Assembly (NCBI GenBank): GCA_963720465.1
Contig: OY970393.1
Location: 1,824,001 to 1,888,000 of the forward strand
Length of the DNA: 64,000 bases
Direction of reading: 5' to 3'
Source of the DNA: Methanobacteriota archaeon
Lineage (GTDB): Archaea > Halobacteriota > Bog-38 > Methanoflorentales > Methanoflorentaceae
Notes under the pieces: model-generated
What the model was told of the DNA's origin: nothing
What the model saw: only the letters and a program-made list of their open reading frames with translations
Database searches by the model: none
Translations under genes and position numbers: made by a program
Part shown: positions 5,161 to 58,107 of the stretch, in pieces
Position numbering within the stretch: position 1 is the first letter of the stretch
How the letters are laid out: the number at the start of each line of letters is the position of its first letter

Positions 5161-5949
5161 TTACAGTGTTGCCTCTACTTCCAGCCGCACCATTTGCACG
5201 TGGACGCGCCAGTTTTCATCTGCTGGGCGTCGCTCAATGTATCCACTGGCGATCTGTTCCACAAAATCCTCGCGCAAGGCTTCCGGAAGGCGCCCCGTGT
5301 AAGGGAGGAAGACGGTGCGCACCCAGCCCTTGAGTGCCTCTTTCCCATCGTGCACCATGTCCTTCGGGATAAGCTCAACACGTTCTGGTGAGAGGCCAAC
5401 GCGGTCAATAAACGCTCGATACTCTTCTACGCCGTAAAAGAACCAAGGATAGGTGAATCCCACAAAATAACCTTTCCAGCGTCTGTCAGTGGTAAGCTCG
5501 TTTGCGACATCTGAGATCAATGCGGCATTGCCGTCCCCCCCGAACTGCAGCAGCGTCCGCCCAGACGGCGTAAGCGCCCGTTTTATGCCGGCAAGCACAG
5601 CGAGGTGGTCACGTATCCAGTGAAGGCTTGCAAACGACACAACCAGGTCGAACTCGTGACGGTACGTCAGGCGCGTTGCATTTCCAAGGCGAAACTGCAG
5701 ATTGTGGAAAAACACCGGAGGGAACCGGCGGAGGGCGAATTCGATCATCGTTTCAGAGCTGTCAATGCCTAGCACCGATCCATCCGGAATGCGTGCCGCA
5801 AGCTCTGCGGTCACCTTCCCATCGCCACACCCGATGTCGAGCACCCGTTCATCACCTGTAAGGCTCAGGGCTCGAATTGCGTCACGCGCCCACTGCTGCT
5901 GGGACGAAGAATGTCGTTCATAGTCGGCAGCGTCCCATTGATACCTCAT
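5161..5949 (-). CDS. Class I SAM methyltransferase (Tam-like)
   Basis: WDAADY, VLDIGCGDG, FDLVVSFASLHW; paralog of 52051-52860. Confidence 0.92.
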   Translation of the reverse strand: MRYQWDAADYERHSSSQQQWARDAIRALSLTGDERVLDIGCGDGKVTAELAARIPDGSVLGIDSSETMIEFALRRFPPVFFHNLQFRLGNATRLTYRHEFDLVVSFASLHWIRDHLAVLAGIKRALTPSGRTLLQFGGDGNAALISDVANELTTDRRWKGYFVGFTYPWFFYGVEEYRAFIDRVGLSPERVELIPKDMVHDGKEALKGWVRTVFLPYTGRLPEALREDFVEQIASGYIERRPADENWRVHVQMVRLEVEATL

Positions 5950-6192
5950 GTTTTCAATCTCCGGTCTCCGTTTATTTCTTTAGTTGTTTGCGTTCTGTTT
6001 CCCTCGTTTTAAGAAGGATTACCAGCGAAGCGAGCTCTGCAATTAGATTCGCTGCTCAGATTTCGCGACGACCTGTGCGGCAGAGCTACTCTCTTGGAGT
6101 GCTGGCATAGATTCGACGAACGCATTGAACTGGTCGGTCCCATTTTTTGAGCGAGGTAGCCGTCTGGTGTCGACAAGCACGATTTGGATCAG

Positions 6193-7212
6193 TTAGGCCT
6201 CCAACACGACTCGATAATGTGCGGCGTTGCTGCGCACGCGTTCCACCGCGCTGTTTACGTCTGCGCAAGAGAAGATCTCTGTTTTTGCAGCAATGCCATG
6301 ACGGGCTGCAAACGCAAGCATCTCTTGCGTCACAGCTCTCCCGCCTGTTACGCTCCCGCCGATCGATTTTTGGCCGGCAACGAGAAGCGCAGTGGGGGTC
6401 GCCACCCCACCTTCTTCCTCGTTGGAAGACAGTCGACTGACGATCGTCAACTTGCCATTGGGCCGCAGCGCCTCTACATAAGCGGCCCACGGAAGGGGTG
6501 CAGTGGCCGTTGCTAATATGAAATCGAGTGTTCGCACAGTCCGTCGCATTTGCGCCGGGTCGCGGCTTATTACAAAGTGATCGGCGCCAAATGCGGCTGC
6601 GTCGCCCTCTTTTTCAGGGTCCGTCGAGAACGCAGTCACTTCGCAGCCCATAGCGTGGGCGAATTGCAGGGCCAGGTGCCCGAGTCCGCCGATCCCAACG
6701 ACGCCGACGTGATGATGTGGTCGTACGCCGTAGCGCCTCATCGGCGCGTACACCGTAACGCCTGCGCACAGGAGCGGTGCTGCGCCTGCCGAATCGAGCG
6801 ACTCCGGGATGGAGAAGGTAAAGCGGCTATCAGTGCGAACGAAATTGGCGAATCCACCGTGCCGCCGCACACACGTGAGCACTTTGCTCTGGCACAGGTT
6901 CTCGTAGCCGTTCAGACACCACTCACAGCGCAAGCAGCTGCCTGATTGCCACCCGACGCCGACTCGCTCACCAATTTTGAGTTGCTCAACGGCCGATCCA
7001 GCGGCGGCCACAGTGCCCACGATTTCGTGTCCTGGCACGAGGGGGTAATGCGAGATATTCCAGTCGTTATCAATGAGGTGAACATCGCTGTGGCAGATGC
7101 CACAGTGGCTCACTTTGATGTCGACGTCGTACGGGCCCCGGTTATGAAGCTCATAATCAAAAGGCTGCAGCGCAGCCTTTGGCGCTCGCGCAGCAACTGC
7201 GTGGATTCGCAT
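6193..7212 (-). CDS. Zn-dependent NAD(P) alcohol dehydrogenase (Ahr/cinnamyl ADH-like)
   Basis: CGICHSD, GHEIVG, structural Zn CLRCEWC...C, GIGGLGH. Confidence 0.95.
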   Translation of the reverse strand: MRIHAVAARAPKAALQPFDYELHNRGPYDVDIKVSHCGICHSDVHLIDNDWNISHYPLVPGHEIVGTVAAAGSAVEQLKIGERVGVGWQSGSCLRCEWCLNGYENLCQSKVLTCVRRHGGFANFVRTDSRFTFSIPESLDSAGAAPLLCAGVTVYAPMRRYGVRPHHHVGVVGIGGLGHLALQFAHAMGCEVTAFSTDPEKEGDAAAFGADHFVISRDPAQMRRTVRTLDFILATATAPLPWAAYVEALRPNGKLTIVSRLSSNEEEGGVATPTALLVAGQKSIGGSVTGGRAVTQEMLAFAARHGIAAKTEIFSCADVNSAVERVRSNAAHYRVVLEA

Positions 7213-7395: not shown

Positions 7396-7908
7396 GTGCC
7401 GAGACGAATATGGAAACAATGGGCCCAAGATCAGTTTCTGGGCGTCGCGCAATTTGGGCCCCTGAGGATGGAGCGCGGCAACATCAAGTTTTTTGTACTC
7501 ATGACACTACGCGACCAACCGCTCCACGGATATGGCATTATTAAGGCTATTGAGGATGTGAGCGGCCACGCCCCAAGCGCAGGCGTGATCTATCCAACTT
7601 TGCAGATGCTTGAGGACCAAGGTTGCGTCGCTATGAACGAGGAGGAGAACAAGAAGATCTACGTCATAACCGATGCTGGTAGACGCTTCCTGGACGAGCA
7701 TCGCGACACGGTTGAGCGGCTGAGTACGCGCGCCGCTCAGCCAAGATGGAGCTGGCTTCCCGGAGTCGGGCGCCGTATCGGGGAAATTTCCCGCACGATC
7801 TTTTCCAACTATTCGTACCTTGATGACGAGAAGATACAGCAGATCGAGCACATTCTTGATGAGGCAAGAAGACAGATCGGCGAAGTGATTTTTGCGAGAA
7901 AGCGTTAA
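7396..7908 (+). CDS. PadR-family transcriptional regulator (start uncertain, possibly 7468)
   Basis: HGYGIIKAIE...PSAGVIYPTLQMLED...YVITDAG. Confidence 0.9.
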   Translation: MPRRIWKQWAQDQFLGVAQFGPLRMERGNIKFFVLMTLRDQPLHGYGIIKAIEDVSGHAPSAGVIYPTLQMLEDQGCVAMNEEENKKIYVITDAGRRFLDEHRDTVERLSTRAAQPRWSWLPGVGRRIGEISRTIFSNYSYLDDEKIQQIEHILDEARRQIGEVIFARKR

Positions 7909-8040: not shown

Positions 8041-9329
8041 TTGAAAGAGTCGAGTGATGCGGCAGTGCTCGAAACGGAAGCTGCGGTCTCCGCCTCAGCG
8101 GGCATCCCTCCTCGGAAGCTTCTCAGGTCGCAGACGGTCAAGGCGCTGCACTACCGCAGCTTTGCCCTCCTTTGGATCGGCATGATCCTGTCGAACGTCG
8201 GCACGTGAGTGCAGGTCATTGCGCAGTCCCTGCTCGTCCTGCAGCTCACGAATAACTCTGGGCTCGCGCTGGGCCTGATTTCATTTGTCCAGGCGGCCCC
8301 ATTCCTAGTGTTTTCCCTCGTGGGCGGGAGCACGGCCGACAGGGTGGACAAGCGGCGACTTCTGCTTGTTACACAAAGCCTACAAATCGTCTATGCTTTA
8401 CGCTGGGCGCCCTCACGATCACCGGGTTAGTCCAGTTCTGGCAAATCGCCATGCTTGCCATGCTGGCGGGGATCACGCTCAGCTTTGATCAACCGACTCG
8501 ATTTGCGCTTATTCCGGGGCTCGTGCCCAAGGAAGATCTCCCCAACGCTATAGCCCTAAACGCGATTGTGTTCAACGGCGCCGCTATCGTGGGACCGGCG
8601 CTAGGCGGCGCCCTGGTGATAGTCATTGGCTATGCGGGCGACTTTTTCCTGAACGGGTTGAGTTACGTCGCTGTCCTCATCGCAATCCTGCTCATGAGCT
8701 TTCCCAAGGTGGCCGGTACGAGCACGAGCTCGCTGCTCCGTGACATACGCAGGGGTCTCGGCTACGTACTACACGAGCCACTTTTGGCACAGCTGCTCGC
8801 CAATTATGGTTCCCTAATGTTCTTCGCTGCTGTCTATACCGTGCTGCTCGCGCTCGTCGGCGTGGCGGTCCTCGGAACCAGTCCTGGGCAGCTTGGCGTG
8901 CTGTACACCGCGATAGGGATCGGCACCGTCGTGGGTTCTCTTGGCGTCGCATCTCTCGGCGACTTTGCGCACAAAGGCCGGCTCTTGACGGTGTCCTCGC
9001 TTTTGATGTCATCTTCTGTGATCATTTTTTCGCTCCTGCACCTCTACTGGGTCTCGTTTGCATTGCTGGTGGTTATAGGTGTCTCGCAAACCGTCTCGTC
9101 GGCCCTCTCAATCACGCTTCTCCAGCTCAACGCTCCCAGGAACATGATCGGATTCGTTATGAGCATAAATACGCTCATCGTCATGGGAATCAGACCCCTT
9201 GGAGCGTTTCCGTTCGGAGCATTGGCTGACGTCATCGGGACATCCTCTGCACTTGCCGCAGGTGCTCTTGTAGCGGCTGCGATTAGCATTTACCTTTTTG
9301 CCTCAAATAGCAGGCTGCGCTCTGCGTGA
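8041..9329 (+). pseudogene. MFS transporter (MFS_3/EntS-like), disrupted
   Basis: ALHYRSFALLWIGMILSNVGT*VQ has in-frame TGA at 8206 at the usual Trp; frameshift near 8400; ADRVDKRRLL motif A; rest intact to 9329. Confidence 0.85.
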
Positions 9330-9992
9330 TGGCATATCTTTTTTGGAAATGCGTGCTTGAAAAAGAGCGATATGACGTCTTGGCCCGAAAGCGTGCTTCA
9401 CAGCGGATGAAGCGAAATTACACGTTGCCGGCAACCCTCAAGCGACTATCAAAGAGTTTTTTTTGCGCTGCCGGAATCGCCAGCCCGAGTCTTACTAAGG
9501 TAAGGGCAAGTCATACCCACGGCACACCACAGGTTAGCCTGGTTTTTCCACTCAATAGTTGCAGCTGTTTCCGGTGCAATTTGTATTCGCCAGCGTACTC
9601 GAGCAATCTATCTGCGGACGCTGATGACGCAAATAACAGATTCCTCTCGCTGTCAATTTGGCTGATAGTGAGCATGGCGCTTTTTGATTAGGCGGAGCCC
9701 ATAGTGTGCTTCTTTTCGTGACACTTGTGGTACTACCAGAAAAATACAGTAGCAGCGAAGCTAGAAACTACTTAAAGAGGCGCATAAGCGTGCGACAAAT
9801 ATCGGTTCCAATGGAGCATCGCGAGCTACAAATTCTTTAGCAGATACGCGTATGGCGGTGCTCGTTGCGAAAAAGAAGGTCTTGCTTACATAAAATACCT
9901 TCATTTCGAGTCCAGATTTTAAAAAAAGGCGCAAAATGCGAGCGAAAACGTTAAATACGATCGTGTAGAGCTTAATTATGCCGTGATTAATA

Positions 9993-10060
9993 GGAGCCGG
10001 ACCCGCGATCTGGCCTGCCTCGAAAACCGTCTTCTCTTACGGCTACCGGGCCCGTGCTCC
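9993..10060. ncRNA. Candidate structured RNA/hairpin element, copy A
   Basis: GGAGC/GCTCC closing stem, CGGACCCG/CGGGCCCG and TGGCC/GGCTA stems; loop similar to copy B; BRE-TATA-like GCGAAAACGTTAAATA at 9942-9957 and T-rich tract downstream on +. Confidence 0.5.
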
Positions 10061-10437
10061 ATTCTCGGTTTTGTTCTGTAGTTTGTTAGGATTTTTTCCG
10101 GTGCTGGCAGTACAGCGAGTGTCCCTTTCTGGCTTTAGGTTCTTGCAGATATAACGTCGACCCCTCATACCTCACCGCTTATGTTTATTTTTTTGATGCT
10201 GTCCACGTGAGGCGCGGTTGCCGTGGCCTTGATGGAACTTGCGGGTAAAAAATCGGACTCAAGCACTGCTTCTTCAGACTTCGTCTTCCAATCACGATAA
10301 ATATTGACGCTGGCTCAATCTCTTTCGTTGATTTCGGCGAAAAATAGCCTTAAGGCGACAACAAAGCGCCGCAAATCTAAATCAATAAGTAGCGTTACTC
10401 ATTAATTGTTAACGATAGACAAAAAGGAGGTGACAAA

Positions 10438-10743
10438 ATGGGAGACGTGAAAACGATCACAAGGATTCCGGTTGGGCCAGTCGCGTTGATGGGTGCTGTT
10501 ATTAGCGCCATTCTGGGACTCATTGAAGGAATAATTTATGCGATCGGCCTCGCAGCTTTTGCTGCGTCGTTGCCTAGCTCGCTTTCTAGCTATGTTAGCT
10601 TTGGAGCGGCTGGCGCACTAGGTGTCATTATCGGCAGCATTATCGGCGGCTTCATTGGCGGGTACATCATAACAGCAATTATAGCACTGATTTACAACGC
10701 GCTGGCGCCTAGAATTGGTGGCGTTAAGCTTGAACTTGAGTAA
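10438..10743 (+). CDS. Small two-TM membrane protein (DUF3566-like)
   Basis: AGGAGGTGA RBS; C-terminal YNALAPRIGGVKLELE. Confidence 0.85.
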   Translation: MGDVKTITRIPVGPVALMGAVISAILGLIEGIIYAIGLAAFAASLPSSLSSYVSFGAAGALGVIIGSIIGGFIGGYIITAIIALIYNALAPRIGGVKLELE

Positions 10744-10992
10744 TGGGGAAGCATATTCAATCGCCTAAGTCGCAGAGTTCTAACGGTGAAACGCAAGCAC
10801 AAAGCGTTGGCCGTTACTTTTTTTGTTTTTTATAAAAACTAGCATGCTTGTCGAGCATAAGAGTGAGGCCCAACTCCGAATGCAGGGCGAGGCGAAAGCG
10901 CATCAACGTGCGATGGCTAAGATCCCTTAGACAGGCTCAAAGTGAATCCTGCGTTAGCTGAGCAAAGAAGCAACGCACGAACTGGACTATAC

Positions 10993-11034
10993 GTATGAAA
11001 GAAAAAAAGAATTGTATGAAAGAAAAAAAGAATT
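10993..11034 (+). repeat. 21-bp tandem duplication of a gene start
   Basis: GTATGAAAGAAAAAAAGAATT x2, giving two in-frame ATGs. Confidence 0.9.
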
Positions 11035-11585
11035 TCGAAAATGCGGCAAGCACCGTGTTTGCCCCGCAACTCGTCGGCCTAGTGACGACCATTGATCGTG
11101 CCAACCGGCCAAACGTGGCGACCTTCGCTTGGATAATGAGCACCTCGCACGATCCGGAGCTCGTAGCAGTAAGTGTTTCAAGAAAACGCTACACGTATGA
11201 GTGCTTAACCGATGAATTCGTCATTAATTTGCCGACGAGGGAGTTGCTCGAACAGGTGTGGGCCGTTGGGACCCGGTCAGGAAGGAACGTGGACAAGTTT
11301 CAGGCGACGGAGTTGACGCCCATACCCGCTGTCGCGGTCAAACCGCCTAGGATTGCCGAGTGCCCGACCCACGTAGAATGTCGCATCGTTGACAGAGTAG
11401 ACACGGGAGACCACACCATCTTTATCGGCGAAGTCGTGGCAAAATCAGGCGACCCTGATGCAATGAAGGACGGTGCTCTCAACGAGCGCATTGAGCCTCT
11501 GTTCCATCTTGGGGGGAAGAAATTCCTGTGCGGTCGCGAACGACTTGACGTCGACAGGCTTCGCGGGGGCAAACGCAGCGTTTGA
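10995..11585 (+). CDS. Flavin reductase family (flavoredoxin-like) protein
   Basis: PNVATFAW, EFVINLP, GTRSGRNVDKF, PPRIAECP, GDHTIFIGEV. Confidence 0.93.
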   Translation: MKEKKNCMKEKKNFENAASTVFAPQLVGLVTTIDRANRPNVATFAWIMSTSHDPELVAVSVSRKRYTYECLTDEFVINLPTRELLEQVWAVGTRSGRNVDKFQATELTPIPAVAVKPPRIAECPTHVECRIVDRVDTGDHTIFIGEVVAKSGDPDAMKDGALNERIEPLFHLGGKKFLCGRERLDVDRLRGGKRSV

Positions 11586-11786
11586 AATCCCGCGCAATCT
11601 ACTTCTGGCAGAGGAGTTTGGGCGTTGATCGCTTGAGCAGAGTGCAGAGCGTCTCGTTTTAGGTGGCAACATTCGTTCCTAATGAATACCTGGCTCAAAA
11701 AAATTGTCAGTTCAAGTTCAAAATCAGAAAAAGGTTTCAAAATTAAGGAAGCCGTTTGTATGTCCCAAACGGCGCTGCTTGATACT

Positions 11787-11853
11787 GGAGCTTAAGGCCC
11801 GCCGCTCGCCCTACCTCGAATCGTCTCTTATTACGCGCGGCGGACCCCGCTCC
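11787..11853. ncRNA. Candidate structured RNA/hairpin element, copy B
   Basis: GGAGC/GCTCC ends, CCGCCGC/GCGGCGG stem, loop CTACCTCGAATCGTCTCTTATTAC similar to copy A. Confidence 0.5.
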
Positions 11854-12002
11854 GTGCTGACCGCAGCAGCTTTGCGGTTTGCGATAATCTGCTGTTTACA
11901 GTGTAGGCGAGACCGCTTTAAGCCCCTTACGGTTTTGTCGCGCGGGCGCTGCGCATCGGCTGTTCTTTGTTAAGTTGGGCTTTGAAGCAGTCATCGCCGA
12001 GC

Positions 12003-12062
12003 TGTGACACGAACGCGGTGTCACGCGTTTACACGCAATTCTTGCCTCACGCGGCCTTATAG
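12003..12062 (+). promoter_or_regulatory. Operator array (2 units) plus TATA-like box of the Cys-microprotein cassette
   Basis: GTGACAC-N7-GTGTCAC palindrome, 26-bp period, CTCACGCGGCCTTAT as at 24116 and 54770. Confidence 0.7.
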
Positions 12063-12089
12063 CGTTTTTGTGCGCAGGCTAGATCAGAG

Positions 12090-13100
12090 GTGAACGTTAT
12101 AGCGACAAATGTAGCAAGCACACAAACGGGCGGACTGCTGTACGCGGGTGTCGCCTCGGCGCTGCGGATAAACAGGCGAATTGAAAACGACGAGATTCCA
12201 CTCTTTATGCAACGGTGCGTCATCGACGCAATGCGCTGGGAAGTCGGCGGAACGCAGTACGAACAGTGGCGCGCTGAAAACGGCAACGGGAAAGATCCAG
12301 CCGTTAAATGGCGTGACGAGGTGGTTACGCCCTACCTCCAGCAGCGATTTGATGGGCTAGAACTGCGAGGCGATGGCCATCTTTGTGGTATCCGACACGA
12401 TAACGATGAGGAGATTGACGAGCGTTTCTACGACACGCAACAGCTTCGAGGCTCCATGCTCGCAAAGTGCCCGGGACAACGATGGCTGTTTGCTCTCGGG
12501 TGCTGCCGAAGATACAGACCGCAGTAGAGTTCGCGTCTTTTTCGAAGGTCGCGAGAGGCTGACGGTGTTCCGCGTGCACCAGCAAGGGCGTGTGCTACTG
12601 CGTCCATTTACGCGTCCGCGTACTCGATGTCCGGAAAGGCGTCTTCGAATTCGAGCCTCCTGTCCGTAAGCTTGTTGTACACGATTACCGCCTCTTGTGG
12701 GGTTAGTGGCGTCAGTTCCGGGTCGCGCTCATCGTCGTCGCCAAAGAACGGCACTGTTTTTTCGTATTTGAAATAGCACCCGCTAGGCGTCCGGAACAGG
12801 TCGACGTTCTTGAGGCCAGTTTTCAGCGTTTCAATGCAGAACTGGTGCTCGTTCCGCGCAAGAAGGATACCTGTATCGGTGTCGCACACCACGCCGCCAA
12901 ACGCTTGTTTCATAGACATACCGTTTGGATGACCTCACAGTTAAACTTTGTATGTGCGCGCGGAAAGTAAAATAGCCTCACGCGAAAAAAGCGATGGCTG
13001 CGCGAACACGACGAACGATCTGAAGTGCAACAAGTGCGCAAAGCGCGTCGCGGATGCGGTTAACGGCGCGCTTCTGCCGCGACATAGCAGCTTCAACTAA
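12090..13100 (+). pseudogene. Split, degenerate copy of the Cys-rich microprotein gene
   Basis: 5' half at 12090-12144 (VNVIATNVAST..., ATG changed to ATA); 3' half at 12996-13100 (GCANTTNDLKCNKCAKRVADAVNGALLPRHSSFN*); ~850 bp of unrelated DNA between. Confidence 0.75.
12608..12919 (-). CDS. Small acidic hypothetical protein, phage/plasmid-like
   Basis: MKQAFGGVVCDTDT...LFRTPSGCYF...PLTPQEA pattern recalls small mobile-element proteins; GAGG upstream. Confidence 0.7.
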   Translation of the reverse strand: MSMKQAFGGVVCDTDTGILLARNEHQFCIETLKTGLKNVDLFRTPSGCYFKYEKTVPFFGDDDERDPELTPLTPQEAVIVYNKLTDRRLEFEDAFPDIEYADA

Positions 13101-15092: not shown

Positions 15093-15249
15093 GTCCCTTA
15101 GTTGCAGTTTGAGAATTGCCGTGCGTTTAAGTTCAGCAGCCGGATTATCGAAAGCAGCAGGCGAGTTGGTTCTTCTCTTGTCCATAAATCGGTCACCGAT
15201 ATATATGTCAGAGATATATATTTAAATATCTTTCTGTATAGTGCTCCTC

Positions 15250-15594
15250 ATGGCGGAAAAGCTGTATGCGTTCTTTGTGCTATACGTTCTAAACGAGCAG
15301 GGGGAACTCAGCGGATATAGGATCGCCAAGATCATCACCGAGATAACCGAGGGTTACTTTTCCCCGACACCAGGAAACATCTACCCCGTGCTGGGGAGCC
15401 TAGAGCAAAGTGGATTCGTAAAAGCAAAAAAGTCCAAGGCCGCCGGTACAGAGCCAGGAGGCCGCAGAAGGAAAATCCTCATTGAAATTACACCTGCTGG
15501 GAAGGCGGCCCTTTTCGATTTTGCGAAACGCAACAAAGAAAGGTTTGAAAAAATCACCTTTTTTTTCGACAAGGTAATAGGAGGCGCTTCATAA
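15250..15594 (+). CDS. PadR-family transcriptional regulator
   Basis: SGYRIAK...PTPGNIYPVLGSLEQSG...ITPAG; TTTAAATA TATA box at 15221; ATATATGT-N3-AGATATAT inverted repeat just upstream. Confidence 0.9.
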   Translation: MAEKLYAFFVLYVLNEQGELSGYRIAKIITEITEGYFSPTPGNIYPVLGSLEQSGFVKAKKSKAAGTEPGGRRRKILIEITPAGKAALFDFAKRNKERFEKITFFFDKVIGGAS

Positions 15595-24115: not shown

Positions 24116-24202
24116 GTGACACAAACGTGCTGTCACGCTTTCCCATACAAACGTGCTGTCACGCTTTCCCACACAATCCCTGTCTCACGCGGCCTTATGA
24201 AA
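24116..24202 (+). promoter_or_regulatory. Operator array (3 x 26 bp) plus TATA-like box of the Cys-microprotein cassette
   Basis: ACAAACGTGCTGTCACGCTTTCCCAY x2 plus a degenerate third unit; GTGACA-N9-TGTCAC palindrome; CCTTATGAAA. Confidence 0.75.
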
Positions 24203-24236
24203 CTACTCTGAGCAGGGTAGCTTGGAGATGAACCTT

Positions 24237-24395
24237 ATGGCAACGAACGTAACGAGCATAAAAAACGGCGCCTGTCTGTATGGCCTTCGCTTCGGCTGCG
24301 TGAACACGACCAACGATCCGAACTGCAACAAGTGTGCAGAGCGCCTCGCCAACGCCGTGAACAGCGTGCTTCGACCGACGCACGGAAGAGCTTGA
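24237..24395 (+). CDS. 52-aa Cys-rich microprotein (not in ORF track)
   Basis: MATNVTSIKNGACLYGLRFGCVNTTNDPNCNKCAERLANAVNSVLRPTHGRA; GGAGATGA RBS; paralog at 54891 with many synonymous differences. Confidence 0.85.
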   Translation: MATNVTSIKNGACLYGLRFGCVNTTNDPNCNKCAERLANAVNSVLRPTHGRA

Positions 24396-44878: not shown

Positions 44879-46351
44879 ATGCGCGCATATAAAATCGTCC
44901 CTATTTCTATAGCAGTTCTTCTCGTTACCGTGCTATTTGCGGGTGTCATCACCGTGAGTGTGGCTTCGACTCCCCTGACCCCATCCTCCGGACTCTCCCT
45001 CTCGGCCAGCACCACCGCCCCCACCGTCAAGCAGTCCGTCACCTTCACCGCCACTCTCAAGAGCGGCTCAACGGACCTGTCGTCCAAGTCCGTCACCATC
45101 TACCACTACCTCAACGGCGTCCGCTACAACGACGCCGCCAAGGCCACCAACGCCAATGGCCAGATCACCCTCACCACGAGCTTTGGCTCCGCCGGTAAGC
45201 GCACCTACTACGCCACCTTTGCCGGTGACAGCTCCTATCAAGCATCGACAAGCAGCGTCGTCACCGTCAACGTGAAGGCCGATCCCGAGCCACAACCGAG
45301 CGTTACACTCACGGCGTCCACCACCGCCCCCACCGTCAAGCAGTCCGTCACCTTCACCGCCACTCTCAAGAGCGGCTCAACGGACCTGTCGTCCAAGTCC
45401 GTCACCATCTACCACTACCTCAACGGCGTCCGCTACAACGACGCCGCCAAGGCCACCAACGCCAATGGCCAGATCACCCTCACCACGAGCTTTGGCTCCG
45501 CCGGTAAGCGCACCTACTACGCCACCTTTGCCGGTGACAGCTCCTATCAAGCATCGACAAGCAGCGTCGTCACCGTCAACGTGAAGGCCCAGAACACGGT
45601 CGACCCCCCAACCAGCACTCAAACTATCTATTACGTTCCCCAGGCGGGATCAACGTGGGTCAACCAAGGGACGGCAGGCGCCAGCTATAACGCGTACTGC
45701 AGCAATCCTGCCTCATTTCAGACCCAGTCAAATGGCTACCCCTATTGGGGTGACGACACGAGCAGTGATTTTGTCTGCATCCCGGCGGGCAGCGCAACCA
45801 ACAACCAGAACGTCGTTTCGTGGGAGATAGGGTTTCATTTCTCCGGAGTAGTGGCTGGCCAGCGCTACCAGAAAATTTGGGATAAAGCGTATGGCGGGTT
45901 CTTCATTGAAATTGACACCAATTACGGCCCTAATGCGAGTTACCTGACCCTCTACCGCGCCACGACCGGCGGCAGTGGCGCGCGGTGGTACATACCCACT
46001 ACTACGCCACTCCGCGCAGGCCACAATTACTACATTCAAATTTCGTGGAACACGAGCGCGGGCCCGGGACACGAACCGTATCCGACGATCTGGATCGGTG
46101 AGGACGGAAAAGCCCCGGTGCTTCAAACGAGCTGGGACGAGAGCGGCGGTGCTCTTGCCGGAACCGGATCGTGGTACAACGACGCAGTAGGGTCTGCGAA
46201 CCTGGGAAATACGGCGTCAGACGGTGGCCACGACACGTCGTCGAAGATTGCCCCGCTCAACGGCGGCATCTTTGTGTATCGGCAATTCAATTCAATCATT
46301 AATTTCAGCAATGGCGGAAACTGGAACACCGATAAACTGCGCTGGGCCTAG
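44879..46351 (+). CDS. Secreted protein with two identical Ig-like (Big) domains and a ConA/LamG-like C-terminal domain
   Basis: Signal peptide; SVTFTATL...TNANG...YYATFAGDSSYQAS x2; aromatic beta-rich C-terminus. Confidence 0.8.
   Translation: MRAYKIVPISIAVLLVTVLFAGVITVSVASTPLTPSSGLSLSASTTAPTVKQSVTFTATLKSGSTDLSSKSVTIYHYLNGVRYNDAAKATNANGQITLTTSFGSAGKRTYYATFAGDSSYQASTSSVVTVNVKADPEPQPSVTLTASTTAPTVKQSVTFTATLKSGSTDLSSKSVTIYHYLNGVRYNDAAKATNANGQITLTTSFGSAGKRTYYATFAGDSSYQASTSSVVTVNVKAQNTVDPPTSTQTIYYVPQAGSTWVNQGTAGASYNAYCSNPASFQTQSNGYPYWGDDTSSDFVCIPAGSATNNQNVVSWEIGFHFSGVVAGQRYQKIWDKAYGGFFIEIDTNYGPNASYLTLYRATTGGSGARWYIPTTTPLRAGHNYYIQISWNTSAGPGHEPYPTIWIGEDGKAPVLQTSWDESGGALAGTGSWYNDAVGSANLGNTASDGGHDTSSKIAPLNGGIFVYRQFNSIINFSNGGNWNTDKLRWA
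45011..45589 (+). repeat. 270-bp intragenic direct repeat (period 309)
   Basis: 45011-45280 appears identical to 45320-45589. Confidence 0.92.
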
Positions 46352-54769: not shown

Positions 54770-54856
54770 GTGACACAAAGATGCTGTCACGCTTTCCCAC
54801 ACAAAGATGCTGTCACGAGTTCCAACGCAATCTATGTCTCACGCGGCCTTATGAAA
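54770..54856 (+). promoter_or_regulatory. Operator array (3 x 26 bp) plus TATA-like box of the Cys-microprotein cassette
   Basis: ACAAAGATGCTGTCACG x2 at 26-bp period, degenerate third unit, CTCACGCGGCCTTATGAAA. Confidence 0.75.
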
Positions 54857-54890
54857 CCATTCCGTGTAGTCCTGATCGGAGATGAACGTG

Positions 54891-55046
54891 ATGGCTACGA
54901 ATGCAACAACCATAAAAAACGGAGCCTGCTGGTATGGCCTCCACTTCGGCTCCTTGAACACCACAAACGATCCGAACTGCACCAAGTGCGCAGAGCGCCT
55001 CGGCCACGCCGTGAACAGCGTGCTTCGCCCCCCGCAGCGCGGTTAA
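54891..55046 (+). CDS. 51-aa Cys-rich microprotein (not in ORF track)
   Basis: MATNATTIKNGACWYGLHFGSLNTTNDPNCTKCAERLGHAVNSVLRPPQRG; GGAGATGA RBS. Confidence 0.85.
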   Translation: MATNATTIKNGACWYGLHFGSLNTTNDPNCTKCAERLGHAVNSVLRPPQRG

Positions 55047-57737: not shown

Positions 57738-58107
57738 CCTTGGCAAGTGCACCCGGTGGACGATGGCCGACGTGACGCGACTAAAATTGCGAGTAAAATA
57801 GCGATACCCACGAGCAATGGGGTTGCATCAGGATACACGGTGGCTCCCTCCGTTGGCTTGCGAATTTCGTAGGAGTCATCAGCCTTATGCGGTTACGGTG
57901 AACTCCATCACCCGTGCATGGCACATACGTATGTTCTTACATAACTATTGCGGCTGTGCACGCCTCCCGTCCTCAAAAGAAGCGGTGGGGGTCCACGAAT
58001 ACTGATCGACATTGCTTCCGGCAGCCATTGTGCTCACATCGTTCACAAACTGAAGGCGCTATCGCGATCTCTGCCACGTTCTTGAATGTTTGGCTACTAC
58101 CGGTCGG

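Follow-up and report, generated by a model that had tools for sequence, protein, structure and literature searches.

Two imperfect palindromes in the 64,000-nt window analyzed here (positions 1,824,001 to 1,888,000 of contig OY970393.1, assembly GCA_963720465.1, from an archaeon of the Methanoflorentaceae) probably belong to a genus-specific family of small RNA (sRNA) genes, six paralogs in number, that act through an exposed loop. We consider it very likely that these are functional sRNA genes, transcribed in the sense that is + in the window. The family and a conserved module upstream of some of its members are new, whereas the kind of element, that is, sibling sRNAs, is known. The genome encodes McrA, and the organism is thus a methanogen or methane-metabolizing archaeon. 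Coordinates refer to the window unless genome positions are indicated.

The two hairpins, copy A at 9993–10060 (68 nt) and copy B at 11787–11853 (67 nt), are both closed by GGAGC/GCTCC and have G+C-rich inner stems, which are CGGACCCG/CGGGCCCG with one A·C mismatch in copy A and CCGCCGC/GCGGCGG in copy B. Their loops, GGCCTGCCTCGAA...CGTCT in A and GCCCTACCTCGAA.CGTCT in B, have G(G/C)CCT(G/A)CCTCGAA...CGTCT in common. Up to this point, the DNA reads as claimed in the initial annotation, which had described two homologous, GGAGC/GCTCC-closed hairpins at these positions. The real unit is larger, however, as an outer helix, P0, had been overlooked; because P0 flanks the 68-nt hairpin, the unit extends over 9981–10068 (88 nt, + strand) for copy A and over 11778–11861 (84 nt, + strand) for copy B. 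These units were delimited by folding and by matches to a covariance model, R1 (93 positions, 25 pairs), at 9979–10072 for A (50.1 bits, E 1.4e-11) and 11776–11865 for B (63.9 bits, E 1.3e-15). In copy A, P0 pairs 9981–9991 with 10061–10068, P1 (GGAGC/GCTCC) pairs 9993–9997 with 10056–10060, and P2 pairs 9998–10005 with 10047–10054, which leaves an apical region of 10006–10046. The corresponding elements of copy B are P0 (11778–11786 with 11854–11861), P1 (GGAGC/GCTCC, 11787–11791 with 11849–11853), P2 (11796–11805 with 11837–11846), and a loop at 11806–11836.

Further copies in the genome were first found by motif scans, BLAST, and nhmmer. Searching the 2.31-Mb single-contig genome with R1 yielded exactly six matches (E 1.7e-23 to 2.2e-10) and no other up to E = 1. 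Copies C, D, A, and B lie on the + strand at genome positions 1,765,829, 1,806,934, 1,833,979, and 1,835,776, respectively, and copies E and F on the − strand at 1,910,748 and 7,223. A covariance-model search for homologs, which the initial annotation had proposed, gave 71 copies, spread over 17 of the genus's 18 genomes. The search covered 24 genomes of the family, which constitute the entire class in the collection used; the 71 matches fall in 17 of these 24, namely this genome and 16 of the 17 other members of the genus, and the six sister-genus genomes gave no match. G016, the only member of the genus that lacks a match, is 61% complete. Among 141 genomes sampled from the phylum, nine matched, all nine belonging to this genus (0/4 sister-genus genomes, 0/128 genomes of 24 other families). 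With the copy-C unit as query, BLAST gave the same picture, with matches in 17 of 41 related genomes (this genome and 16 of the 17 others of the genus) and none in six sister-genus genomes or in 17 genomes of other families.

The 71 copies form six orthologous groups, comprising 13 (A), 8 (B), 10 (C), 14 (D), 11 (E), and 15 (F) sequences, with one row reassigned by hand from F to E. Their positions are conserved. In the closed genome of a relative, G011, copies are found at 694, 734, 760, 762, 828, and 1206 kb, compared with 1766, 1807, 1834, 1836, 1911, and 7 kb here; the order is identical and the spacing nearly so. The A–B tandem is kept in eight genomes, on one strand and with 1.0–1.8 kb between the copies. 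Over 310 nt, copy C orthologs are 78–92% identical, and paralogs are about 70–73% identical or not alignable (BLAST). An exact search for the loop pattern in a viral contig collection gave no match. Since the six orthologous groups have kept their places in the genome, the family is an old one and not a mobile repeat. Five of the six copies lie inside 145 kb (genome 1,766–1,911 kb of 2.31 Mb), a cluster that spans 134 kb in G011.

In all six types, a box resembling a B-recognition element and TATA box (BRE/TATA) is found on the window-+ sense strand of the hairpin, about 24 nt before it. Types A, C, D, and E share CGAAA(T/A)CGTTAAATA, and the F-type box is GGAAGA..GTTAAATA; the B-type box, GAAAAAGGTTTCAAAAT, is conserved in an alignment of eight genomes and matches the TATA form seen in the remaining copies less well. 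In the window, the putative promoter of copy A is CGAAAAC-G-TTAAATA at 9943–9957 (+) and the promoter-like box of copy B is GAAAAAGG-TTTCAAAATTAA at 11727–11746 (+). The boxes resemble those located 30–45 nt before tRNA genes of this genome, such as GAAATTAGTTAAATAG before a tRNA-Leu gene. Downstream, T tracts occur within 0–20 nt of the hairpin. In copy A, TTTT at 10069–10072 (+) follows P0 directly, and most of the 13 A-type sequences have TTTT or TTTTT after the hairpin; both the upstream box and the downstream T tract of copy A had been noted in the initial annotation. Copy B is directly followed by a short, terminator-like hairpin, CCGCA...TGCGG, and then TTT (11861–11880, +, from a fold of 96 nt of the + strand), and this hairpin is kept in eight of eight B-type sequences. 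Archaeal RNA polymerase uses oligo-T for termination, and for this reason we read the T tracts as terminators; the tract 3′ of copy A is a probable transcription stop.

Conservation agrees with a compact unit. Counted from the model start, it is 0.91–0.98 between −75 and +75 in types A, C, and D (at least 0.91 across this range for the 13 A-type orthologs) and 0.34–0.6 beyond about +100, and F-type loci have only the promoter and the RNA in common. In the C type, P0 is formed by GUCGAUGC and GUGUUGAC; it encloses the 68-nt hairpin and brings the predicted 5′ end into pairing with the 3′ end. As judged from the sequences, each unit would thus consist of a promoter and an RNA of 85–90 nt, with predicted ends. 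No conserved open reading frame (ORF) was found on either strand from −560 to +120 across orthologs or paralogs. A coding reading was rejected, as the ORFs that span the module and hairpin on the + and − strands show conservation neither between orthologs nor between paralogs. The apparent peptides MKVF... (minus) and ...EARNYLKRR... (plus) result from conserved DNA boxes; in D and E types, their start is lost or stops are gained. ARAGORN detected no tRNA or tmRNA in the window.

Structural support was assessed in the covariance-model alignment A6 (71 rows, 69 distinct, 25 pairs). Of 1614 cells, 82.1% can pair, compared with 34.7–44.1% when the 3′ partners are slid by one to three columns. Changes on both sides occur at 16 of the 25 pairs, and 113 cells carry such a change, compared with 45.5 ± 6.7 in shuffled alignments; 0 of 500 shuffles reach the observed number. 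The covariation score is 0.267, versus at most 0.136 in the slid versions. Covarying stems had been claimed on the basis of copies A and B; covariation is present in the 71-sequence family, but the differences between A and B themselves are mostly shifts in helix register and extension. Within types, changes can be followed step by step. In B-type sequences, P1 passes from GGAGC/GCUCC via GGAGU/GCUCC to GGAGU/ACUCC (C–G, U·G, U–A), in A-type sequences from GGAGC/GCUCC via GGAGC/GUUCC to GGAAC/GUUCC (G–C, G·U, A–U), and in D-type P0, CAGCA/UGUUG becomes CAGCG/CGUUG (A–U to G–C). Other stem pairs are nearly invariant, with G–C in 68 of 69 sequences at two P1/P2 pairs and C–G in 66 of 69 at another.

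The promoter, the ratio of G·U to A·C cells, and the passage of G–C via G·U to A–U favor the + strand. G·U cells outnumber A·C cells about 3:1 overall (291 vs. 95), and they do so in P0 (181:43) and in P2/3 (104:38). The + strand fold is the more stable one in 46 of 71 sequences, with counts of 9/10 in type C, 12/14 in D, 14/15 in F, 8/13 in A, 3/11 in E, and 0/8 in B. The strand had initially been called ambiguous; this holds for A and B taken alone, which fold better on the minus strand, but the promoters and the comparative data favor +.

The apical loop consists of two halves. The 5′ one, G(G/C)CCUACCUC(G/A)AA, varies little or not at all across the six types, as do the columns C-T-.-C-C-T-C-.-A-A in alignments A4 and A6, and a conserved loop, proposed from two copies, is thus common to all six paralogs. 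In the window, the motif occupies 10012–10024 in copy A and 11808–11820 in copy B (both +). The 3′ half of the loop (e.g., CCGUCUUUUACU, CGCGCUCUUUUCG, and CCGUCUCGUUGUU) is specific for each paralog; it is conserved among orthologs in types A to E and variable in F. In ensemble folds, the CCUACCUC motif is mostly unpaired, with a mean probability of 0.66–0.87 in the five types measured (0.66 in A and 0.81 in B). The 16S rRNA of this genome ends with GGAUCACCUCCU, with CACCUCCU being the anti-Shine–Dalgarno (anti-SD) sequence. ACCUC is common to the loop motif and the 16S 3′ end, meaning that the apical loop resembles, rather than complements, the latter and could pair with GAGGU(A/G)GG. According to these folds, the CCUACCUC motif would be both single-stranded and complementary to ribosome-binding sites (RBSs), as is typical for the loops of anti-RBS sRNAs. 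The initial annotation had pointed to complementarity between the loop and the GAGG RBS; the folds do leave most of the motif unpaired, and ACCUC also occurs at the 3′ end of 16S rRNA, but genome scans gave no convincing target.

Presence in RNA was assessed using assembled contigs of four peat and wetland metatranscriptome runs (X1–X4), which give no strand, ends, or levels. Overall, 18 RNA-library runs share a small part of the window, at most 0.17 of sampled words. Copy A is covered by an X4 contig (record 18) over 9989–10104 at depth 7, and copy B by X1, X2, and X4 contigs over 11483–12029 at depths of 11–63. An X4 contig runs out into adapter sequence at 11884, just past the terminator-like hairpin of B. 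The stretch 10206–10607 is without contig cover in all four runs and is uninformative. A 109-nt adapter-flanked fragment over 9713–9821 (X3, depth 3.6) does not suffice for calling a transcript from the region upstream of A.

Several of our observations weigh against a family of + strand sRNAs that pair with mRNAs. The contigs show presence in RNA libraries, not a discrete transcript. A 1.5-kb X1 contig (record 4) extends from the flavin reductase gene located upstream through B, meaning that cover of B may be read-through, and DNA carry-over in the RNA libraries may be a source of contigs. The promoter of B is a weak match. Minus-strand folds are the more stable ones in eight of eight B-type and eight of 11 E-type sequences, and the A and B hairpins reach −32.4 and −35.9 kcal/mol on the minus strand (z −4.1 and −4.4), compared with −25.6 and −25.0 kcal/mol on the plus strand (z −1.9 and −1.8). 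Over the lengths folded, z-scores are unremarkable for plus (−1.1 to −1.9) and are −3.0 to −4.4 for minus. In P1, G·U and A·C cells are about equally frequent (15:16), and all pair counts come from close kin in an alignment that was fitted to the + strand model. Crude genome scans revealed no convincing mRNA target. RNAduplex runs of the six loops against −40 to +20 of 5841 crude ORF starts were too noisy. Outside the copies, the genome contains 81 complements of the 12-nt motif, 15 of which precede a possible start codon, in a count made without a control; the best two RBS-like sites, at genome positions 1,232,228 and 1,233,807, precede a doubtful start and a doubtful ORF. Among 1940 ORFs of at least 150 aa, only 202 have GAGGT 2–14 nt before the chosen start.

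Comparison with known families was based on the Rfam 15 covariance models. At the gathering score, the only match in the window is a fluoride riboswitch at 57863–57921. Searching 9800–12100 at E ≤ 10 gave two chance matches, neither of them on the hairpins, and the loci of C, D, E, and F at E ≤ 1 gave only mir-378 (22.7 bits vs. a cut-off of 80 bits). The proposal of a new structured noncoding RNA family is thus borne out by 71 homologs, covarying stems (113 cells changed on both sides, against 45.5 ± 6.7 in shuffles), a conserved loop, and the lack of an Rfam match in the window, at 9800–12100, and at the loci of the other copies.

The closest functional parallels are found among methanogens and bacteria. 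In Methanosarcina mazei, loop 2 of sRNA154 and sRNA41 have been proposed to mask the RBS of targets (reviewed in PMC5867862). Like these, the present RNAs are predicted to be small and intergenic in a methanogen, and their loops, too, are predicted to expose a C/U-rich ACCUC. Compared by description, the differences are that there are six paralogs here, each with a single long hairpin and paired termini and limited to one genus, and that three copies have a conserved upstream module of about 480 nt. LhrC and Qrr are bacterial sibling sRNA families, in which paralogs share a seed and differ elsewhere, some being arranged in tandem. Similarly, A and B are in tandem, and a seed-like motif is common to the copies, the rest being different; in contrast, the present family belongs to another domain of life and has archaeal BRE/TATA promoters. 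None of the bacterial sRNA families of Rfam matched at the hairpins up to E = 10, and we know of no chaperone for these archaeal RNAs. Neisseria sibling sRNAs likewise comprise several paralogous genes per genome (PMC5362039). A literature search under the presumed genus name returned no small-RNA paper, and searches on sibling sRNAs, archaea, and anti-Shine–Dalgarno returned no archaeal sibling-sRNA paper among the matches listed.

Two further classes of RNA were considered and rejected. Y RNAs are about 90–100 nt long, with paired ends and a large pyrimidine-rich loop, occur as several paralogs per genome, and are bound by Ro60. The present RNAs are likewise paralogous rods with paired termini and a large pyrimidine-rich loop; on the other hand, they have no Rfam Y RNA match and no tRNA-like domain, and no TROVE/Ro60 gene was found in the genome in a search in which control genomes were positive. 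Guide sRNAs of the H/ACA or C/D box type are characterized by an ACA box 3′ of a hairpin with a pocket and a K-turn, or by C (RUGAUGA) and D (CUGA) boxes. When the 71 aligned rows were inspected, the 3′ flank of P1 was seen to read GUG, AUG, AUU, GCG, or ACC, neither an internal pocket nor a conserved GA tandem was present, and CUGA was confined to some B-type rows.

Upstream of copy A, a conserved noncoding module of about 480 nt extends over 9444–9926 (genome 1833444–1833926, +), as delimited by nhmmer with a profile made from the sequences upstream of A-, C-, and D-type copies. It contains the boxes TTCCACTCAA, TTTCC..TGCAA, CAGTCG..AGCTAGAAACTA.TTA, TTCCAATGGAG (9806–9816), and ACCTTCATTTCGAGTCCAGATTTTAAAA, which are at least 90% conserved across 35 sequences and are separated by spacers that vary in sequence and are constrained in length. 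The module has its full length in A, C, and D, is represented in E by the proximal ~145 nt only, and is absent in B and F. RNAalifold detected no consensus RNA structure on either strand over −245 to −20 and −540 to −50. A second RNA within the module, suggested by a promoter-like box, AGAAACTATTTAAA, was rejected on the same ground. We infer that the module is regulatory DNA for the transcription of A, C, and D. A 121-aa ORF at 9326–9691 (+), which overlaps the module of A, has no Pfam match and is probably not a gene.

One of the boxes, TTCCA(A/G)TGGAG (TTCCAGTGGAG in E; TTCCAATGGAG in A and C), is similar to the core of the origin recognition box (ORB) of archaea, sharing TTCCA(G/A)TGGA, or 10–11 nt, with the published consensus CTTCCAGTGGAAACGAAAGGGGT (PMC4153887, PMC4164010). 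It differs from the ORB in having neither the GAAA nor the GGGGT (G-string) part, in being a single box per copy, and in being absent from B and F and degenerate in D. The genome contains no full ORB motif, and its two orc1/cdc6 genes, at 1,594,734 and 1,925,039, are beside no copy, the nearest copy being 14 kb away. A replication origin was rejected on the basis of these results; GC skew was uninformative.

Taken together, these observations suggest the following model. Each gene would be a transcription unit of its own on the window-+ sense strand, with a BRE/TATA promoter that starts, some 24 nt on, an 85–90-nt RNA ending at the nearby T tract. The RNA would fold into a long imperfect hairpin in which P0 pairs the first and last 8–10 nt, followed by P1 (GGAGC/GCUCC) and the G+C-rich P2, with the pyrimidine-rich apical loop of 25–40 nt as the proposed working part. 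The RNAs would act in trans, the loop pairing with purine-rich, GAGGU-type mRNA segments such as RBSs; the shared motif may serve as the seed, and the paralog-specific half of the loop may add selectivity. The box-and-spacer module upstream of A, C, and D would control their transcription. Within this model, masking of RBSs is a tentative proposal, possible rather than probable.

The loop and the G–C pairs of P1 and P2 could instead form the recognition site for a protein, with the RNAs acting as scaffold, decoy, or sponge; a candidate would be a factor that normally recognizes the ACCUC-containing 16S 3′ end. Some evidence points this way. The stem pairs mentioned above are nearly invariant in sequence too (68/69 and 66/69), the loop motif is invariant across the six paralogs and resembles rather than complements the 16S 3′ end, the scans found no specific mRNA target, and a rod with paired termini and a large pyrimidine-rich loop recalls protein-bound RNAs such as the Y RNAs. 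Yet, the partner family that was tested, TROVE/Ro60, is absent from the genome and no partner is known, and a 3′ loop half that is paralog-specific and conserved among orthologs fits selectivity in pairing better than a common protein site. We consider protein binding rather unlikely. A bolder variant takes the six RNAs to be mimics of the 16S rRNA 3′ end, which would display the ACCUC core of the anti-SD in an open loop on a stable rod and tune translation initiation globally. They would either compete with ribosomes for SD-led mRNAs or titrate a factor with affinity for the 16S 3′ end, and the unusually long (~480 nt) box-and-spacer control region would set their output. Translation would then be under an additional, new level of control in a methanogen that matters for the release of methane from peat. 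We regard this variant as improbable. Compared with both, sRNAs that pair with mRNAs through the exposed loop are the reading we prefer.

Three other explanations concern the nature of the element rather than the partner of its loop. The functional RNA might be the minus transcript, or both strands might be transcribed, with the purine-rich loop UUCGAGGUAGG acting as an SD-like decoy. The folding data for A and B are in line with this (z −4.1 and −4.4 on minus vs. −1.9 and −1.8 on plus), as is the greater stability of the minus strand in 25 of the 71 sequences, including all B-type and 8/11 E-type ones; furthermore, a recurrent C·A/A·C mismatch in P2, seen when pairing by hand, would be G·U on minus, and there are 95 A·C cells among the modeled pairs. 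Nevertheless, we judge a minus-strand RNA very unlikely. The flank on the minus side is the least conserved one and has no conserved promoter-like box, P0 exists only on the + strand (G·U 181 vs. A·C 43), and the series from G–C to A–U pass through + strand wobbles. R1 gives 20–22 bits on minus, compared with 94–102 bits on the same loci, although this difference arises by construction. An element working at the DNA level, in which the palindrome and boxes are protein sites bound, for example, by an initiator or regulator and any RNA is incidental, would account for a module made of short invariant boxes and variable spacers without RNA structure, for the 10–11 nt that one box shares with the ORB consensus CTTCCAGTGGAAACGAAAGGGGT (PMC4153887, PMC4164010), and for imperfect palindromes that read alike on both strands. 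It would not be expected to produce the threefold excess of G·U over A·C, and the hairpin follows the BRE/TATA box by exactly one promoter-to-start distance in all six types. In addition, B and F keep promoter and hairpin without having the module, the ORB match lacks GAAA and the G-string with no full ORB in the genome, and the orc1/cdc6 genes (1.595 and 1.925 Mb) are beside no copy, with a GC skew that shows no origin there. We regard a DNA-level element as most improbable. The initial annotation had also offered a hairpin-type mobile repeat and an antitoxin as explanations, and neither is supported. Dispersed copies, five of them inside 145 kb, might suggest a relic or active mobile repeat (like miniature inverted-repeat or palindrome-associated transposable elements), and a hydrophobic 101-aa ORF located 370 nt downstream of A might suggest a type I antitoxin or antisense RNA. 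However, there are only six copies, their positions and order (and spacing in G011) are conserved across the genus, including the A–B tandem in eight genomes, the paralogs are old and divergent with orthologs that are 78–92% identical, and the viral contigs gave no match. Neither strand carries a conserved ORF over the copies or adjacent to them, and neighboring genes differ between copies. This explanation is already largely refuted and hardly credible next to an old family of sRNA genes.

To our knowledge, the regulatory RNAs of uncultured methanogens are almost unknown. Six syntenic paralogs in a genus found in peat provide metatranscriptomics of peat methanogens with concrete RNA genes to quantify, and RNA biology gains an archaeal example of sibling sRNAs; a new family could be registered with the covariance model. 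The conserved upstream module poses a question of its own about archaeal transcription control, one that lends itself to testing.

Concerning the surroundings of the copies, PadR-family genes are found at 0.5–3 kb from A/B, C, and E, and not from D or F, which is possibly a coincidence. They are located at 7396–7908 (+) and 15241–15594 (+) in the window, at 5914–6441 of the locus containing E (L003), and at 6424–6657 of the locus containing C (L001), the latter being truncated and recognized by eye. A common theme in gene neighborhood was rejected, as other neighbors of the copies are unrelated, and the PadR genes were taken as no evidence. The deepest contig cover of the 4-kb region around A and B is at 12117–13000 (X2 about 200, X4 up to 160); two ORFs in this stretch, 12090–12527 (+) and 12608–12919 (−), have no Pfam match.

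The window contains a second, unrelated repeated noncoding element, at 12002–12132, ~24147–24270, and ~54811–54918, with at least four more places in the genome. It consists of inverted GTGACAC/TGTCAC boxes and a conserved CTCACGCGGCCTTAT(G/A)AAAC, followed by an SD and the start of small paralogous ORFs, and it looks like the shared promoter/operator of a regulon. Two identical 110-nt strings at ~45061–45170 and ~45370–45479, 309 nt apart, are probably a tandem repeat in a coding region. The fluoride riboswitch (crcB motif) at 57863–57921 is on the minus strand and scores 57.7 bits against a cut-off of 34 bits.

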